From a virus (lineage: Duplodnaviria > Heunggongvirae > Uroviricota > Caudoviricetes): 64,000 nucleotides of DNA. The translations under genes and the position numbers were made by a program. Below the pieces are notes generated by a model. That model saw only the letters and a program-made list of their open reading frames with translations, was not told the origin of the DNA and did no database searches. Shown here piece after piece: positions 6,564 to 29,459 of this stretch. How positions within the stretch are numbered: the stretch's first letter is position 1; each line of letters starts with the position of its first letter. The stretch lies in the IMG/VR virus record IMGVR_UViG_3300017917_003521; one strand, given 5' to 3'.

Positions 6564-6582
6564 AAACTTTTTTAATATATAC
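6564..6582 (+). promoter_or_regulatory. Putative phage promoter AAACTTTTT(T)AATATATAC upstream of tRNA-fMet
   Basis: Same motif recurs at about 7881, 15463 and 26085 ahead of tRNA arrays. Confidence 0.55.
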
Positions 6583-7849: not shown

Positions 7850-7915
7850 CAAATAATAAAAAAAATTAAAAGGGAAGATAAAACTTTTTATATATACTTT
7901 AATATAATTAAAACG

Positions 7916-15306: not shown

Positions 15307-15338
15307 TTTGGTGAATTAAAAAACACACCGTATATTTG
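15307..15338 (+). promoter_or_regulatory. Bacteroidota-type promoter (TTTG-N20-TATATTTG)
   Basis: Consensus match. Confidence 0.65.
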
Positions 15339-15484
15339 TAAAACAATTGAGAGAGGCAACGATTTAGATACAAATTTCAATTTTTTTTACAAATTTTAGA
15401 AAAAAATTAGGCAAACTTAAAACTTTTATCTATATTTGTATAAAATAAGTCAAAAGGAACAAAAACTTTTTAATATATACAACA

Positions 15485-15595
15485 ATGAAAACAATGAATT
15501 TAAATATGAATCTTAATCTAACAGTGGTGAATACGTTATGTATTAGACCAGTGGAGGGTTTTGCCATATCTAAAAATTTGTTTTCAGTCAACTAA
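15485..15595 (+). CDS. Leader peptide 3 MKTMNLNMNLNLTVVNTLCIRPVEGFAISKNLFSVN (putative multi-amino-acid attenuator)
   Basis: 36-aa ORF between promoter cassette and terminator. Confidence 0.75.
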   Translation: MKTMNLNMNLNLTVVNTLCIRPVEGFAISKNLFSVN

Positions 15596-15623
15596 TGTAA
15601 GACAAATAAACTAAAGATAAGTG

Positions 15624-15655
15624 AAACCCTCAGACAAAAATCTGAGGGTTTTTTT
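15624..15655 (+). terminator. Intrinsic terminator/attenuator before the large tRNA array
   Basis: AAACCCTCAGA-CAAAAA-TCTGAGGGTTT plus U-tract. Confidence 0.85.
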
Positions 15656-15723
15656 ATGCCTGTCCTCCTGAACATTTGGTGTTGGTTCGGGAGGACATGA
15701 AAAAGGAAAACACCATACCACAT

Positions 15724-15795
15724 TCCTCGGTAGCTCAGTGGTAGAGCAAACGGCTGTTAACCGTTAGGTCGCTGGTTCGAGCCCAGCCCGGGGAG
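15724..15795 (+). tRNA. tRNA-Asn (GTT)
   Basis: AACGG-CTGTTAA-CCGTT, G73. Confidence 0.92.
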
Positions 15796-15803
15796 CAAAA
15801 CAT

Positions 15804-15888
15804 TGGTAGGTACCCGAGCGGTATTCAGGGACTAGTCTGATACACTAGGTGAGAAATCACGACATGGGTTCAAATCCCATCCTACCAA
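15804..15888 (+). tRNA. tRNA GAT (Ile) with long variable arm
   Basis: CTAGT-CTGATAC-ACTAG; V arm GTGA-GAAA-TCAC; Tyr-like body. Confidence 0.75.
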
Positions 15889-15894
15889 CAACAT

Positions 15895-15966
15895 TCACTG
15901 GTAGCTCAGAGGCAGAGCAGGCGCCTGTTAAGCGTCAGGTCGGGATATCGTAATTCCCCCAGTGAG
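15895..15966 (+). tRNA. tRNA-Asn (GTT), T loop ATCGTAA
   Basis: GGCGC-CTGTTAA-GCGTC. Confidence 0.75.
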
Positions 15967-15972
15967 CAAAAC

Positions 15973-16051
15973 GCCTCAGTAGCCGAGGTCGCCTTCTAAG
16001 CGACTAATCGTAACGGAACTGAAAATGTAGGTTCGAATCCTACCTGGGGTA
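15973..16051 (+). tRNA. D-arm-less rearranged tRNA with TCT (Arg) anticodon
   Basis: GCCTCAG/CTGGGGT acceptor, 8-nt connector, GTCGC-CTTCTAA-GCGAC, 22-nt variable region, canonical T arm. Confidence 0.65.
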
Positions 16052-16057
16052 CAAAAT

Positions 16058-16130
16058 GGTCTCCTCGTCCAACTGGATAGGACATCGGTCTTCTAAACCG
16101 AGAATATGGGTTCGAATCCCGTGGAGACTA
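16058..16130 (+). tRNA. tRNA-Arg (TCT)
   Basis: TCGGT-CTTCTAA-ACCGA. Confidence 0.9.
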
Positions 16131-16138
16131 CAAAAAAT

Positions 16139-16221
16139 GCCGAAGTGGTGGAATGGTAGACACGCTAGCCTTAGGAGCTAGTACCCGAAAGGGTGTGTGG
16201 GTTCGAGTCCCACCTTCGGTA
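16139..16221 (+). tRNA. tRNA-Leu (TAG)
   Basis: CTAGC-CTTAGGA-GCTAG; long V arm. Confidence 0.92.
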
Positions 16222-16227
16222 CAAAAT

Positions 16228-16315
16228 TGGCAGGTAGCCTAGTGGTTCAGGCACCAGACTGTTAATCTGAGAGAAGAAATTCTCAACGTGGGTTCGAATC
16301 CCACCCTGTCAGCCA
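16228..16315 (+). tRNA. tRNA GTT (Asn) with long variable arm, CCA encoded
   Basis: CCAGA-CTGTTAA-TCTGA; V arm GAGAA-GAAA-TTCTC; G73. Confidence 0.75.
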
Positions 16316-16318
16316 AAT

Positions 16319-16391
16319 AGTCCTGTAGCTCAATCGGGGGAGCGCCACTGTTACATAGTGGAGGGAGTCGGATCGTAACCGACCGGGACTA
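16319..16391 (+). tRNA. tRNA-Val (TAC), T loop ATCGTAA
   Basis: CCACT-GTTACAT-AGTGG. Confidence 0.78.
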
Positions 16392-16397
16392 CTAAAA

Positions 16398-16495
16398 TGC
16401 TTTATGCACAATCTTACGATCTCTCAGTTAAAAGCTGTCGTAGGTTTAAGTGATAAAACAATATGTTTATCAGTTGTGAAAAACATAAAGCACCA
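16398..16495 (+). ncRNA. Three-way-junction RNA ending in CCA
   Basis: TGCTTTATG/CATAAAGCA plus CACAA/TTGTG closing two hairpins; 3' end GCA-CCA. Confidence 0.55.
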
Positions 16496-16496
16496 T

Positions 16497-16570
16497 TGGA
16501 ACATAGCTCAATTGGTTAGAGCATTCGCCTGATACGCGAAAGGTTATGAGTTCGAGTCTCATTGTTCCAA
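16497..16570 (+). tRNA. tRNA-Ile (GAT)
   Basis: TTCGC-CTGATAC-GCGAA. Confidence 0.92.
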
Positions 16571-16578
16571 CAACAAAT

Positions 16579-16661
16579 GGTACTGTGGCCGAGTGGTGTC
16601 GAAAGACGAGAGGCACAGATCTGCAAAATCTGTCACACTGGTTCGAATCCAGTCAGTACCT
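16579..16661 (+). tRNA. tRNA-Cys (GCA) with hairpin inserted in the D loop
   Basis: CAGAT-CTGCAAA-ATCTG; GTC-GAAA-GAC in D loop; U73. Confidence 0.85.
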
Positions 16662-16667
16662 CAACAT

Positions 16668-16739
16668 TGTTCTGTAGCTTAATGGGAAAGCGCTACCTTG
16701 ACATGGTAGAGAGAGTCGGATCGTTACCGACCAGAACAA
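16668..16739 (+). tRNA. tRNA-Val (GAC), T loop ATCGTTA
   Basis: CTACC-TTGACAT-GGTAG. Confidence 0.8.
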
Positions 16740-16745
16740 CTACAA

Positions 16746-16821
16746 GCCTCTATAGCTTTAACGGTAGAGCACCGCACTTGTAATGCGGGGGTTGGCGGTT
16801 CGAATCCGTCTGGAGGCTCCA
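16746..16821 (+). tRNA. tRNA-Thr (TGT), CCA encoded
   Basis: CCGCA-CTTGTAA-TGCGG. Confidence 0.92.
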
Positions 16822-16843
16822 AATAATGGATGGTGATTAAGAG

Positions 16844-16917
16844 TGTTACTTCGTGAAATTGGTATACACATTTGTCCTAAAAACAAACTTTTGAGGGTTC
16901 AAGTCCCTCAGTAAAAT
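16844..16917 (+). tRNA. Leu-like tRNA (TAA, C33) lacking the V arm, embedded in a long outer helix
   Basis: Leu-type D arm GTG-AAATTGGTATA-CAC; TTTGT-CCTAAAA-ACAAA; weak acceptor. Confidence 0.5.
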
Positions 16918-16944
16918 CACTCTTTAGACTTTCCTCCATTATAT

Positions 16945-17028
16945 GCCGATGTGGCTCAGTGGCGACAGCACTGGTTTTGTAAACCAGAGACGAATAGTCC
17001 AACGGGGGTTCGAGTCCCTCCATCGGCT
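16945..17028 (+). tRNA. tRNA TGT (Thr) with long variable arm
   Basis: CTGGT-TTTGTAA-ACCAG; V arm GAC-GAATA-GTC; U73. Confidence 0.75.
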
Positions 17029-17043
17029 CAAAATAAATCACCT

Positions 17044-17129
17044 GCCTGGGTGGTGGAATTGGTAGACACGCTGGACTTAAAATTCAGTGGGCAGTAATGC
17101 CCGTGCGGGTTCGAGTCCCGCCCCAGGTA
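17044..17129 (+). tRNA. tRNA-Leu (TAA)
   Basis: CTGGA-CTTAAAA-TTCAG; long V arm. Confidence 0.92.
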
Positions 17130-17160
17130 CTGAAGTGAAACAAAAGTTCACTACTAAATT

Positions 17161-17231
17161 ATTGGGATAGTTTAACGGTAAATCGTGGGCCTGATATGCC
17201 CTTGTTCTTGGTTCGACTCCAGGTCTCAATA
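17161..17231 (+). tRNA. tRNA-Ile (GAT)
   Basis: GGGC-CTGATAT-GCCC. Confidence 0.75.
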
Positions 17232-17237
17232 CTAAAC

Positions 17238-17309
17238 TTCGATATTGCCTAATGGTAGGGCGCAGGGGGACATGTTCCTGAGGACTTGGTTCGATTCCGG
17301 GTATCGATA
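17238..17309 (+). tRNA. tRNA-like, anticodon undetermined (8-nt loop GGACATGT)
   Basis: Acceptor and T arm intact; CAGGG/TCCTG stem with non-canonical loop. Confidence 0.45.
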
Positions 17310-17317
17310 CAAAAAAA

Positions 17318-17390
17318 GCAGTCATCGTATAATAGGTGATTACACGTCCTTGGTACGGACGAGACTCCGGTTCGAATCCGGATGATTGCT
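17318..17390 (+). tRNA. tRNA-Thr (GGT)
   Basis: CGTCC-TTGGTAC-GGACG, U73. Confidence 0.88.
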
Positions 17391-17401
17391 CAACAACATC
17401 T

Positions 17402-17482
17402 GCCCAGATGGTGGAATGGTAGACACGCTCGTTTAAGAGGCGAGTACCGAAAGGTGTGAGAGTTCGAGTCTCTCTCTGGGTA
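17402..17482 (+). tRNA. tRNA-Leu (AAG)
   Basis: Leu body; CTCGT-TTAAGAG-GCGAG places AAG at 34-36. Confidence 0.75.
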
Positions 17483-17492
17483 CAAAATATAT

Positions 17493-17562
17493 GCCGTGGC
17501 TTAGTGGAAAAGAGCCTACTCTCATAAGGTGGGTTAAGTGAGTTCGAACCTCATACACGGTA
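17493..17562 (+). tRNA. tRNA-Met-like (CAT), shortened acceptor/D junction
   Basis: CTACT-CTCATAA-GGTGG; 6-bp acceptor, nt 7-9 appear deleted. Confidence 0.5.
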
Positions 17563-17567
17563 CAAAT

Positions 17568-17648
17568 GTCAGAATGGTGGAATGGTATACACACTGGTCT
17601 CAAAAGCCAGCGCCTAACGGTATGAGAGTTCAATTCTCTCTTCTGATA
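17568..17648 (+). tRNA. tRNA-Leu (CAA)
   Basis: CTGGT-CTCAAAA-GCCAG; long V arm. Confidence 0.9.
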
Positions 17649-17670
17649 CTCGATAAAAAAACCAATAGAA

Positions 17671-17883
17671 ATGGAAAAGAATGAAATTAAAAAAGCATTG
17701 TACAAACAAAACCCAAAAGCCGAGTTTAAGTTTATCAGAAAAGGTGTAGCTTATTACTTAGCAATTATCGAATTTGAAAGTGAACCAGTTGAAATTAGAT
17801 TTGAGGTTCCTGTTTCAGATATGGGTGATGCTGACTTTGAATACATGATGGATTCAAAGTATTTAATTAGATGGATATCTTAA
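17671..17883 (+). CDS. Conserved small phage hypothetical protein
   Basis: 70-aa ORF (KKALYKQNPKA...FEVPVSDMGDADF) after the last tRNA. Confidence 0.7.
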   Translation: MEKNEIKKALYKQNPKAEFKFIRKGVAYYLAIIEFESEPVEIRFEVPVSDMGDADFEYMMDSKYLIRWIS

Positions 17884-18693: not shown

Positions 18694-20157
18694 ATGAAAA
18701 ATATAGTAACAAGAATTGCACCTTCTCCAACTGGACCGTTTGCACATATTGGTAATGTGAGAACTCTATTGTATAACTACTTTCTTGCTAAAAAGAATGG
18801 TGGTAAATTCTATGTTCGTTTGGAAGATACCGATCGTGATAGATATAATGCCTCGTTTTTAACATACTTTAAAGATATGTGTGATTGGCTTGGTATAGTA
18901 CCTGATGGTTCTTATTGGAACCCTGATCCATCTATTGGCTCATTCACTCAATCAACAAGAGATTATTCAGATAAGGTTAAATTCCTTTTAGATAAAGGTT
19001 TGGCTTACTATGCCTTTGATACTAAGGATGATTTAGACGCACTAAAGGCTAAAGGTCTAAAGTATGACTCAACAACTCGCATGTCTATGAATAACTCATT
19101 GACTAATCCATCCACTGATATTATGTTACAAAGTGGTGTTCCTTATGTAATTAGATTTGCTGTTCCAGCTGACTTAGATGTAACTTTCACTGATGCTATT
19201 TTAGGTGATATCACAATCAACACAAATACTTTAGATGATAAAGTTTTAATTAAGTCAAATGGAATTGGCTCATATCATCTTTGTAATGTTTGTGACGATC
19301 ATGATATGGGTGTTACTCACGTTCTTAGAGGTAACGAGTGGGTAAACTCTACTCCTTTCCACGTTATTCTTTATAAGGCTTTTGGTTGGGATGTTCCTAC
19401 ATTTGCTCACTTACCTTTAATTATGAATCCAGATGGTAAAGGTAAGTTGTCTAAGAGAACTGCTATGAAGTATGGTATTCCTATCGCACCACTTGGTTAC
19501 ACAGATGATAATGGTGTTTATACACCAGGTTGGAAAGACTTAGGATATGATCCTAAAGCATTTATGAACTATCTTGCTTTAATTGGTTGGAATCCAGGAG
19601 CTGAAGTAGAAATTATGTCTATGGATGATATGATTAATTTATTCTCTTTAGATAGAGTTCACAAGTCTGGTGCTCGTTTCGATATGGATAAAGCTAAGTG
19701 GATGAACTCTCAATATCTTAAATTAACAGATAACAAAGACTTGATGCCTTATGTTGATGTAGTTGACGATAGATATTCTGATGATAAATTAGACATGATT
19801 GTCTCTTTGGCTAAAGATAGATCTGACTTTAAAACTGACTTGAATAAAATTGTTAAATTATTCTTTGATGTCCCTTCTATCGATGATAGAAGTAAATTAG
19901 ATGATAACTATACAAAAGTTATGTCAGACTTTATCAACAAAATTGATACAATTAACTTTGATGATACAAACTCAATCAAAGACACTATCTCATCAATCTG
20001 TAATGATTTAGGTGTTAAGATGGGTAAAGTAATGCCTGGTTTAAGAATGGCTTTGGTATCCGGGATTGCTGGACCAGACTTAATGACAACAATGTCAATT
20101 CTAGGTAAAGACCAAACAAAATTGAGAATTAATAACTCAATTACGGTAATGGCTTAA
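18694..20157 (+). CDS. gltX: Glutamyl-tRNA synthetase
   Basis: RIAPSPTG, HIGN, RLEDTD, VLRGNEW, KLSKR, anticodon-binding tail. Confidence 0.95.
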   Translation: MKNIVTRIAPSPTGPFAHIGNVRTLLYNYFLAKKNGGKFYVRLEDTDRDRYNASFLTYFKDMCDWLGIVPDGSYWNPDPSIGSFTQSTRDYSDKVKFLLDKGLAYYAFDTKDDLDALKAKGLKYDSTTRMSMNNSLTNPSTDIMLQSGVPYVIRFAVPADLDVTFTDAILGDITINTNTLDDKVLIKSNGIGSYHLCNVCDDHDMGVTHVLRGNEWVNSTPFHVILYKAFGWDVPTFAHLPLIMNPDGKGKLSKRTAMKYGIPIAPLGYTDDNGVYTPGWKDLGYDPKAFMNYLALIGWNPGAEVEIMSMDDMINLFSLDRVHKSGARFDMDKAKWMNSQYLKLTDNKDLMPYVDVVDDRYSDDKLDMIVSLAKDRSDFKTDLNKIVKLFFDVPSIDDRSKLDDNYTKVMSDFINKIDTINFDDTNSIKDTISSICNDLGVKMGKVMPGLRMALVSGIAGPDLMTTMSILGKDQTKLRINNSITVMA

Positions 20158-26028: not shown

Positions 26029-26102
26029 TTTGACAAATTAAAACTTTGTTGTATATTTGTATAAAATAAGAACAAAAGGAACAAAAACTTTTTAATATAT
26101 AC
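26029..26102 (+). promoter_or_regulatory. Promoter cassette (host-type TTTG-N19-TATATTTG plus phage motif), duplicate of 15430-15480
   Basis: 30-nt identity CAAAAGGAACAAAAACTTTTTAATATATAC at 15451-15480 and 26073-26102. Confidence 0.7.
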
Positions 26103-26952: not shown

Positions 26953-27534
26953 ATGAACTTGAAAGAGGAAATTAAAAATTGTTATAGTGTATCAGATTTT
27001 TGTAGATTATTAAATTTATCACAAGGTGGTGGTGGATTTTCTAAAGCGAAAAAAATAATACAAGATAACAATCTGGATATATCACATTTTGATAAGGGTT
27101 ACTTGAAAAGACAAAAGAATCCTAAAATTGAAAAGGTTTGTCCAGTTTGTGATAAGAAATTTGAAACGGTTACTTGGAGCAATAGAAAAGAAAAAGTTAC
27201 TTGTTCTAAGTCGTGTGCTAACTCTTACTTTAGAAGTGGTGTTGATAACCCAAACTGGAAAGAAGAATCATACAGAACTACTTGTTTTTATTATCACAAA
27301 AAAGAATGTATAATATGTGGTGAGGAAAAAATTGTAGAGGTTCATCATATGGATGAAAATCATATGAATAATAAACCCGAAAATTTAGTACCTTTGTGTC
27401 CTACTCATCATCAATATTGGCACTCAAGATATAAAGAGGAAATAGAAGATAAAATATATAACTACATAAAAGAATTTAAAATGAGAACAACAACACAATA
27501 CCAGCAACAACAACAAATTAATCCAACGGATTGA
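26953..27534 (+). mobile_element. Free-standing HNH homing endonuclease; last 17 codons are the Gln leader peptide
   Basis: CPVC...CSKSC, CIICG..VEVHHMDENHMNNKPENLVPLCPTHH. Confidence 0.85.
27481..27534 (+). CDS. Leader peptide 5 MRTTTQYQQQQQINPTD (putative Gln attenuator)
   Basis: In-frame ATG after an A-rich stretch; CAA-TAC-CAG-CAA-CAA-CAA-CAA. Confidence 0.8.
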   Translation: MRTTTQYQQQQQINPTD

Positions 27535-27854: not shown

Positions 27855-29459
27855 ATGAATTTCATTGAAGAAAAAATATTAGATAAAGGTAATCTTGATA
27901 AATTAACTTTAAGATTCCCACCAGAGCCAAATGGTTATTTACATATTGGTCACGCTAAATCCATTATCTTAAATTTTGGATTGGCTGAAAAATATAATAG
28001 ACCTTGTAACTTGAGATTTGATGATACAAATCCAACTACTGAAGATACACATTTTGTTGAATCTATAATAAAAGATATAGAATGGTTAGGCTACAAGCCT
28101 GCTAATATTTTCTATACATCTGATTACTTTGAATTTATTTACAAATGTGCTGTTACTTTAATTAAGAAAGGTCTAGCTTATGTTGATGATTCAACATCTG
28201 AAGAAATTGCTAACTTAAAAGGAACACCCACAGTTGCTGGTAAAGATTCACCATACAAGTCAAGAACTATTGAAGAAAACTTAGATCTATTTAATAGAAT
28301 GAGATTAGGTGAATTTGTTGAAGGTTCTAAAATTCTTAGAGCTAACATTGATATGGCTTCTCCTAATATGATTTTAAGAGATCCTGTTATTTATAGAATA
28401 ATATCTAAGTCACATCATAGAACTGGTGATACTTGGAAGATTTATCCAATGTATGATTTTGCTCATCCTTTAAGTGATTATAACGAAGGTATTACTGATT
28501 CTTTATGTACTTTAGAATTTGAAGTTCATAGACCTTTATATATGTGGGTCTTAGAAAATTGTGATTTAGAAAATCCTTTACCAGAAGAAACTGAGTTTGC
28601 TCGTTTGAACATTGACTATACAGTTATGTCAAAGAGAAAGTTAAAGAGATTAGTTGAAGAATCTTATGTTGATGGTTGGGATGATCCAAGAATGCCTACT
28701 ATCTCTGGATTAAGAAGAAGAGGTTATACACCAAGTGCTATTAAAGATTTTTGTGATAGAATTTCTGTTACTAGAAAAGATGGTGTTGTTTCTTATTCTT
28801 TACTTGAAGAATGTCTAAGAACCGAATTGAATAAGACTGCTCCAAGATTAATGGGTGTCATGGATCCTGTTAAGTTAGTTGTTACTAATTTTGAAGGTGA
28901 AGGATATTGTGAAATTGACAATAATCCAGAAGATGAAAATGCTGGTAAAAGAAAAGTTTCTTATTGTAATGAATTTTGGATTGAAAAAGAAGATTTCAGA
29001 GAAGAAGCCAATAACAAATATCACAGATTAAAGTTAGGTGGTGAAGTTAGATTAAAAGGATTGTTTATAGTTAAAGCCAATGAAATAATTAAAGATGAAA
29101 ACGGTGAAATTATAGAAATCAGATGTACTTATGACCACGATGCTTGGATTGGTGTTACTGAAAAGAGGGTTAAAGGTACTATTCACTGGGTTTCTGTTAA
29201 CCACGGAGTTAAGATGAAAGTAAACGATTATGATAGATTATTTATCAATAGTTCACCAGACAAAGGAGATGAAGATTTTACAACTCATGTCAATCCTAAC
29301 TCATTAGTTATTAATGATAATGCTATCTTTGAGGAAAATGTAAAAGATTGTAAAGTAGGTGTGCCTGTTCAAATGATGAGAAAAGGTTACTATGTTTTAG
29401 ATAAAGATGGTAAGTCTTGGAACAGAACTGTAAGTTTGAAAGAAGGATGGGTAGGTTAA
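27855..29459 (+). CDS. glnS: Glutaminyl-tRNA synthetase
   Basis: RFPPEPNGYLHIGHAKS, RFDDTNP, IYPMYDFAH, CTLEF, MSKRKL, KGTIHWVS. Confidence 0.96.
   Translation: MNFIEEKILDKGNLDKLTLRFPPEPNGYLHIGHAKSIILNFGLAEKYNRPCNLRFDDTNPTTEDTHFVESIIKDIEWLGYKPANIFYTSDYFEFIYKCAVTLIKKGLAYVDDSTSEEIANLKGTPTVAGKDSPYKSRTIEENLDLFNRMRLGEFVEGSKILRANIDMASPNMILRDPVIYRIISKSHHRTGDTWKIYPMYDFAHPLSDYNEGITDSLCTLEFEVHRPLYMWVLENCDLENPLPEETEFARLNIDYTVMSKRKLKRLVEESYVDGWDDPRMPTISGLRRRGYTPSAIKDFCDRISVTRKDGVVSYSLLEECLRTELNKTAPRLMGVMDPVKLVVTNFEGEGYCEIDNNPEDENAGKRKVSYCNEFWIEKEDFREEANNKYHRLKLGGEVRLKGLFIVKANEIIKDENGEIIEIRCTYDHDAWIGVTEKRVKGTIHWVSVNHGVKMKVNDYDRLFINSSPDKGDEDFTTHVNPNSLVINDNAIFEENVKDCKVGVPVQMMRKGYYVLDKDGKSWNRTVSLKEGWVG

Follow-up and report, generated by a model that had tools for sequence, protein, structure and literature searches.

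A putative multivalent leader-peptide attenuator upstream of a tRNA array in a phage genome

The reasons for which phages carry tRNA genes, and the circumstances of their use, have been a matter of debate for decades. Here we ask what might control such genes at one locus of a 64,000-nucleotide (nt) stretch of phage DNA, hereafter the window, which belongs to the Caudoviricetes record IMGVR_UViG_3300017917_003521 of IMG/VR. At this locus, a leader open reading frame (ORF) of 36 codons followed by a TAA stop codon (15485-15595) stands upstream of an array of 21 tRNA-like genes (15724-17649, identified with ARAGORN and Rfam). A first-pass annotation, made from the letters alone, had described the locus as attenuator 3 of the window, with a leader whose codons sample most anticodons of the array. 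Our analysis supports the attenuator reading: the ORF is short and contains codons cognate to the array, it is accompanied by a terminator and a covarying antiterminator at the correct spacing, and the arrangement is conserved. These parts, as well as their spacing, conservation, covariation and the codon match, are seen in the sequence itself. With a probability of roughly 0.8, we take them to form a multivalent ribosome-mediated (leader-peptide) transcription attenuator that controls tRNA genes. Its elements, the array and the signals around them all lie on the + strand.

Codon content of the leader and of its relatives

The readability of codons by array tRNAs was judged with conservative wobble rules. 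Under these rules, the array reads 22 codons, which constitute 37.4% of the codons in the long ORFs of the window (a background share of 0.374). As the first-pass annotation had stated, all of the first 21 leader codons except AAA can be read by the array: codons 1 and 3-21 are readable, and codon 2 (AAA) is the sole exception. Codons 3-21 form the sensing block (15491-15547), with 19 successive readable codons for Thr, Met, Asn, Leu, Val, Cys, Ile and Arg (AGA). This run is the longest in the six frames of the window, the runner-up having 13 codons, and runs in the 49 long ORFs do not exceed eight. In 20-codon windows of the long ORFs, the maximum is 15 readable codons. Among 251 short ORFs the leader ranks first (19 readable codons vs. 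16 for the second), and the probability of at least 19 out of 20 at the background share is 1e-7. In total, 10 of the 13 distinct array anticodons are sampled by codons 2-21; anticodons GAC and CAA are sampled in the leader tail only, and GGT is sampled nowhere.

The annotation had cautioned that leaders of this kind share Asn/Leu-rich starts, so that a part of the match could be generic. This is true insofar as all leaders of the family contain such filler, codons of the type read by this array (array 3) making up 44-48% of them, which counts against the attenuator reading. The same filler would be expected if the switch were real but not codon-specific: the leader would then read general translation capacity, affected by host shut-off, lost coupling or any slowdown, and so time the expression of the tRNAs, while the codon match would be a by-product of AT-rich filler and shared leader ancestry. 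The Asn/Leu/Thr/Ile-rich starts of all family leaders agree with this explanation, as does the end of the sensing block, whose nucleotide invariance fits a structural constraint. However, the match remains when the shared prefix is excluded. Codons 8-21 are array-readable in 14 cases out of 14 (the next best short ORF has 12), with a probability of 1e-6 at the background share and 1.9e-5 at the generic rate of the leaders, 0.46, whereas in these positions the remaining four leaders of the window contain only 3-6 array-3 codons out of 14. The enrichment over short ORFs, which the annotation had proposed as a check, thus survives both the removal of the shared prefix and the correction for codon usage.

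The relatives of the leader bear on the same question. An AT-rich 17-nt motif, conserved just upstream of the leader start codon (15464-15480), retrieved 30 leader or tRNA units on IMG/VR contigs. Tyr/Glu-rich leaders are located upstream of Tyr and Glu tRNAs, Gly/Ala-rich leaders upstream of Gly and Ala tRNAs, Asp/Pro/Gln-rich leaders upstream of Asp, Pro and Gln tRNAs, a Ser/Arg-rich leader upstream of Ser and Arg tRNAs, and a leader rich in His, Lys, Phe, Ser, Trp and Arg codons upstream of tRNAs for that same set. When seven leader classes were compared, with one representative each, the true pairing of leaders and arrays was the single best of 5040 permutations, and for each of the seven arrays its own leader ranked first. 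This enrichment of leader classes for their own arrays, together with amino acid substitutions that stay within the set (see below), argues against a switch indifferent to codons, and we regard the latter as improbable.

Very rare codons occur in the leader and are conserved among its orthologues: GTG, with a 3.4% share of Val codons, is present twice in a row, and ACG accounts for 1.9% of Thr codons. CTC and CTG (<1% of Leu codons) are used by the leaders of relatives.

Terminator, antiterminator and competing structures

The leader ORF is followed by a GC-rich intrinsic terminator (15624-15655) with an 11-bp stem (15624-15634/15641-15651), a 6-nt loop and a run of seven T (15649-15655); the energy of the hairpin is -16 kcal/mol. 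The antiterminator segment that had been predicted to begin where the codon match ends, GAGGGTTT (15554-15561), does pair with AAACCCTC (15624-15631). The helix is in fact longer, 11 bp: the region 2 core (15554-15564), which is the 5' strand of the antiterminator, pairs with region 3 (15621-15631), its 3' strand, which covers a part of the 5' arm of the terminator and 3 nt of its upstream flank. The antiterminator therefore extends three bases past the terminator stem, and the two structures are mutually exclusive. The first base of the AGA codon that closes the sensing block is exactly 9 nt before region 2.

Region 1 (15486-15520) is the 5' strand of a long 1:2 hairpin that would act as an anti-antiterminator. 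For nine distinct orthologues folded singly, the RNA ending before region 3 adopts a long hairpin in which the sensing codons pair with region 2 and the tail (1:2). When region 3 is added, the optimum switches to the 2:3 pairing, and in the full RNA it returns to 1:2 together with the terminator (3:4); both shifts occur in each of the nine. Single-sequence folds and counts of pairs in the named structures were used for 1:2 and 2:3 in place of a consensus, as the RNAalifold consensus of ten orthologues contained only the terminator and two local hairpins and neither 1:2 nor 2:3. The fold of the whole leader is far more stable than that of shuffled sequences (z = -5.0), and the duplex between the leader ORF and the terminator arm (-16 to -20 kcal/mol) was equalled by only 0-4 of 2000 codon shuffles in every orthologue.

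Inside the ORF, codons 13-23 contain an apical hairpin (15522-15553), the stem of which is nearly invariant in nucleotides. As its pairs scarcely vary among the orthologues and none covaries, the comparison speaks neither for nor against it; it may be a pause or nucleation hairpin.

The structure also bears on the Leu codons. The first-pass annotation had matched four different Leu codons of the leader to the four Leu anticodons of the array. The correspondence holds if the entire ORF is counted; TTG, however, is codon 32 and lies in the tail, downstream of the antiterminator, where stalling could not help. The four Leu codons of the sensing block represent three anticodon classes, which under genome usage is expected with P ~0.39; in the leaders of two relatives (L035 and L089), isoacceptor sampling is marginal (P 0.034). 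In every orthologue the non-TTA Leu codons belong to the leader strand opposite the G-rich region 2; in the window these are CTT and CTA in region 1, which pair with the region 2 G-run. A structural constraint is therefore a simpler explanation of the Leu codon variety, and sensing at the level of Leu isoacceptors is unsupported.

Ribosome position

The effect of a stalled ribosome was modelled by masking 27 nt around the A-site codon and folding the nascent RNA. With the A site at codon 20 or any earlier codon, the intact antiterminator is the optimum; at codon 21, 8 bp of it are left, and at codons 22-30 it is abolished, a boundary that another choice of the footprint edge would move by about one codon. 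In this model, the end of the matched run is the last stall site that leaves region 2 free. An A site placed at any of codons 3-7 still leaves the core of region 1 uncovered, so the shared prefix probably does not sense, and the effective sensor would comprise approximately codons 8-21; this meets the caveat of the annotation from the mechanistic side, too. The reverse logic, in which the ribosome masks the terminator, was considered and rejected, as the stop codon is 29 nt upstream of the terminator arm.

Conservation among orthologues

Ten orthologues of the locus, nine of them distinct, were compared: the window, L001, L002/L005, L015, L016, L035, L089, L108 and L109. They include two published genomes of uncultured phages with matching leader regions, LR756502.1 and LR745206.1 (642 and 635 kb, respectively). 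The arrays of the orthologues serve the same set of amino acids. The ORF is open in all ten, and indels in the sensing block are solely multiples of three. Of about 15 amino acid changes between the sensing blocks, about 14 remain within the set of the array (P ~2e-6, a rough estimate from peptides aligned by hand, given that a random non-synonymous neighbour stays in the set in 34% of cases). Among the orthologues compared, none was seen to have jointly lost a tRNA species and its codon.

The antiterminator covaries: four of its pairs are altered on both sides, and 90.9% of the cells are paired vs. at most 62% with a slid partner. In L035 and L089 the terminator stem is unrelated to that of the window, and the leader segment at the same position is now its complement. 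The distance of 9 nt between the first base of AGA and region 2 is fixed in all nine distinct orthologues, though AGA ranges from codon 21 to codon 25.

These data bear on another explanation, namely that the terminator is constitutively leaky, or an insulator that closes the upstream unit, behind an ORF that is untranslated or incidental, and that the tRNAs come from a constant level of read-through or from a promoter that escaped recognition. If the 17-nt motif is a promoter, this would suit such an explanation, as do the 66 nt that lie between terminator and first tRNA in the window genome. This spacer (15658-15723), which contains a 7-bp GC-rich hairpin, is, however, an insertion peculiar to this genome: eight of the nine other orthologues lack it, and their distance from the T-run to the first tRNA is just 9-17 nt (thus in 8 of all 10), too short for a separate array promoter. 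In L108 the corresponding stretch is a 232-nt insertion carrying a small ORF. Furthermore, an incidental ORF would hardly be kept open in ten orthologues with indels in threes and set-preserving substitutions, nor would a mere insulator be expected to have a covarying antiterminator that is swapped along with the terminator and an invariant spacing to the last sensing codon. We therefore consider a leaky terminator quite unlikely.

The peptide itself, rather than its codons, might be what matters, if the ORF encoded a functional micro-protein or a nascent arrest peptide similar to SecM or TnaC. The T-L-C-I-R stretch, identical in ten orthologues, is what such a peptide could look like. On the other hand, the next residue is P, R or T, the tail after region 2 is poorly conserved, and upstream positions vary freely inside the amino acid set of the array. 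Moreover, the third codon positions of T-L-C-I-R are invariant and fall inside the predicted hairpin, which points to a constraint on RNA. The arrest-peptide interpretation of T-L-C-I-R was rejected on account of the variable next residue and the invariant third positions, and a role of the peptide as such seems very unlikely indeed.

Proposed mechanism

The attenuator that we favour could operate as follows. Transcription would begin upstream of 15485, and the short ORF would be translated during RNA synthesis. If decoding is smooth, the ribosome would pass region 2 and reach the stop codon, and 1:2 would re-form behind it; region 3 would then be free to build the 3:4 terminator, and RNA polymerase would halt at the T-run. 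If decoding is slow at an Asn, Leu, Met, Thr, Val, Cys, Ile or AGA codon in the range of approximately 8-21, the ribosome would cover region 1 and leave region 2 free to pair with the emerging region 3, so that no terminator could form and the polymerase would enter the 21-gene array. The array would supply tRNAs for those very codons, which amounts to negative feedback on decoding capacity. Here we infer translation of the ORF, the kinetic order of folding, and the physiological signal, which may be either tRNA shortage or poor charging.

Apart from the filler codons mentioned above, several observations weigh against this attenuator. First, the stop codon is 32 nt past region 2, and the ORF runs 12-15 codons beyond region 2. 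In contrast to the classical trp model, a ribosome that has arrived at the stop codon would leave region 2 uncovered, and termination behind an unstalled ribosome therefore needs either re-formation of 1:2 or appropriate timing. Second, on nascent RNA free of ribosomes 2:3 is about 4 kcal/mol better than 1:2, so that the default (off) state would have to be kinetic. Third, the 1:2 helix lacks covariation support, and it is also missing from the consensus fold. Finally, hardly any nucleotide varies in the terminator stem or at the end of the sensing block, so that a part of the peptide conservation reflects RNA structure and not codon identity.

What the attenuator would be for is a more tentative matter. 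One possibility, which we find rather doubtful, is that it is a sentinel of tRNA depletion serving counter-defence: once the pool is emptied for any of about ten anticodons, the ribosome would stall and replacement tRNAs, odd-shaped copies included, would be produced. The depletion might be caused by host anticodon nucleases, by other tRNA-targeting defences, or by the phage's own attack on host tRNAs, and the long-variable-arm Ile, Asn and Thr tRNAs and the hairpin-tagged Cys tRNA described below would possibly be nuclease-resistant. Were this so, huge phages would have, in this attenuator and its sisters, a codon-resolved and self-tuning supply of tRNAs.

The tRNA array

The array comprises Asn(GTT) (three genes), Ile(GAT) (three), Arg(TCT) (two), Leu(TAG), Leu(TAA) (two), Leu(AAG), Leu(CAA), Val(TAC), Val(GAC), Thr(TGT) (two), Thr(GGT), Cys(GCA), Met(CAT), and one tRNA-like gene with an 8-nt anticodon loop. 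ARAGORN with default settings finds 18 of them; the number rises to 20 with Rfam added and reaches the 21 of the first-pass annotation at a relaxed ARAGORN threshold. The Cys(GCA) gene (16579-16662), which the annotation had counted, is real: it scores 57 bits with Rfam, has a small hairpin in the D-loop, and has been kept in five relatives, whose anticodon stems show compensatory changes. In L035, the tRNA-Cys has its extra hairpin in the variable region and not in the D loop.

Several members of the array are unusual. Three tRNAs of 85-88 nt with long variable arms, Ile(GAT), Asn(GTT) and Thr(TGT) (15804-15889, 16228-16315 and 16945-17029, respectively), accompany canonical tRNAs with the same anticodons, and these forms recur in L001, L005, L015 and L016. 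The gene with the 8-nt anticodon loop (17238-17310) is assigned the anticodon 'acat' by ARAGORN and receives no Rfam call; it is conserved in three phages (also L005 6986-7058 and L016 2898-2970), and a Met/Ile2 variant and a four-base decoder are both conceivable. The second Arg(TCT)-like tRNA (15973-16052; Rfam, 36.7 bits) has a D arm that is poor or absent, and its anticodon arm is followed by a long insert; similar genes are present in L002 and L016. Two structured spacers inside the array (16393-16496 and 16822-16944) are not clear tRNAs. The latter, which has an outer stem, is conserved in the arrays of L005 and L035, and ARAGORN places a 75-nt Leu(TAA) within it.

Upstream signals

The TAnnTTTG box marks promoters in Bacteroidota. 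A candidate -7 box of this type, found by pattern matching and conserved in the alignment of orthologues, is located at 15431-15438, and a second one at 15331; no such box occurs between the terminator and the tRNAs or within the array. The 17-nt motif has four matches in the window (6566-6582, 7881-7897, 15464-15480 and 26086-26102), all of them before tRNA units, whereas 0.37 would be expected by chance. At 6566 the motif is directly upstream of a tRNA-Met gene, with no ORF between them. The motif could be a promoter, possibly a phage-specific one, or a translation-start element.

Genomic context

The window encodes a glutamyl-tRNA synthetase (GluRS, 18694-20157), a glutaminyl-tRNA synthetase (GlnRS, 27855-29459), a ClpB-like ATPase, and many ORFs without a known family. 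ARAGORN identifies 37 tRNA genes in four or five blocks. Relatives of the GluRS with 51-81% identity were found on IMG/VR contigs of up to 483 kb, while the 465-aa protein encoded upstream of the leader has no relatives in IMG/VR. Phage genomes of more than 634 kb have been placed in a clade predicted to infect Bacteroidetes (PMC7162821), which agrees with the TAnnTTTG boxes upstream of the leader. The window comes from the genome of a huge phage with hosts of Bacteroidota type.

Attenuator 3 is the most complex of the set found in the window. A poly-Gln leader is located upstream of three tRNA-Gln genes and the GlnRS gene, and an ORF resembling HNH endonucleases (26953-27534) ends in this leader. 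In the relatives L015 and L016, Gln tRNAs follow close behind the Asp/Pro array.

Comparison with known systems

The attenuator probably represents a known kind of mechanism, leader-peptide attenuation, with a new target, tRNA genes. Full-text literature searches found no published account of leader-peptide control of tRNA genes, including those of phages, and the words attenuator, leader and terminator are absent from the paper on huge phages (PMC7162821). If the model is true, the supply of tRNAs is under feedback from decoding, a logic known before for amino acid and synthetase genes and not for tRNA genes. The model is directly testable, it describes a natural multi-input sensor in which one switch serves eight amino acids, and its sequence signature can be used to annotate huge-phage genomes, including the published ones of 635-642 kb. 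For pheV, a tRNA-Phe gene of E. coli, Caillet and co-workers reportedly described an attenuator-like upstream leader in 1985, which would be a possible precedent.

One proposal for phage tRNAs is that they take the place of host tRNAs cleaved by anticodon nucleases (PMC10264068). That system resembles ours in that phage tRNA sets with altered features are thought to sustain translation after the loss of host tRNAs; in contrast, it concerns the tRNAs and not their regulation, and no sensor that would switch them on is described there.

A terminator/antiterminator switch that senses tRNA status before translation-related genes is also typical of the T-box riboswitch (RF00230). The T-box, however, binds uncharged tRNA directly and needs no translation, whereas the element in the window has a conserved ORF; it gave no match to RF00230 over 15400-17700 even at E-values up to 1. 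Among the Rfam leader families (Trp, His, Leu, Thr, Phe), none matched at the gathering threshold, the only hit being Phe_leader with 25 bits against a cut-off of 55.

Leader-peptide attenuation of the translation apparatus is known from synthetase genes. In E. coli, the pheM leader precedes the aminoacyl-tRNA synthetase genes pheST. Leaders with His codons occur upstream of hisS paralogues in bacilli (PMC2965389). The signal in these systems is the supply of one charged tRNA, and the product is the charging enzyme for one amino acid; here the products are the tRNAs themselves, so that the switch could also respond to tRNA loss.

The leader has tRNA genes downstream, and not genes of amino acid biosynthesis as in the operons with trpL, hisL, leuL, thrL, ilvL and pheL. 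Within that group, multivalent attenuators are known from the enterobacterial ilvGMEDA (Ile/Leu/Val) and thr (Thr/Ile) operons. As proposed for the element in the window, they translate a short leader in which regulatory codons for more than one amino acid are clustered, a stall at any of these codons favours read-through, and four regions upstream of the regulated genes pair in mutually exclusive ways (1:2, 2:3 or 3:4), with an intrinsic terminator at the end. They differ in that they control biosynthetic enzymes, whereas the putative phage attenuator would control tRNAs for eight amino acids with at least 10 anticodons, has a leader ORF that extends 12-15 codons past region 2, and belongs to a phage of presumably Bacteroidota-type hosts.

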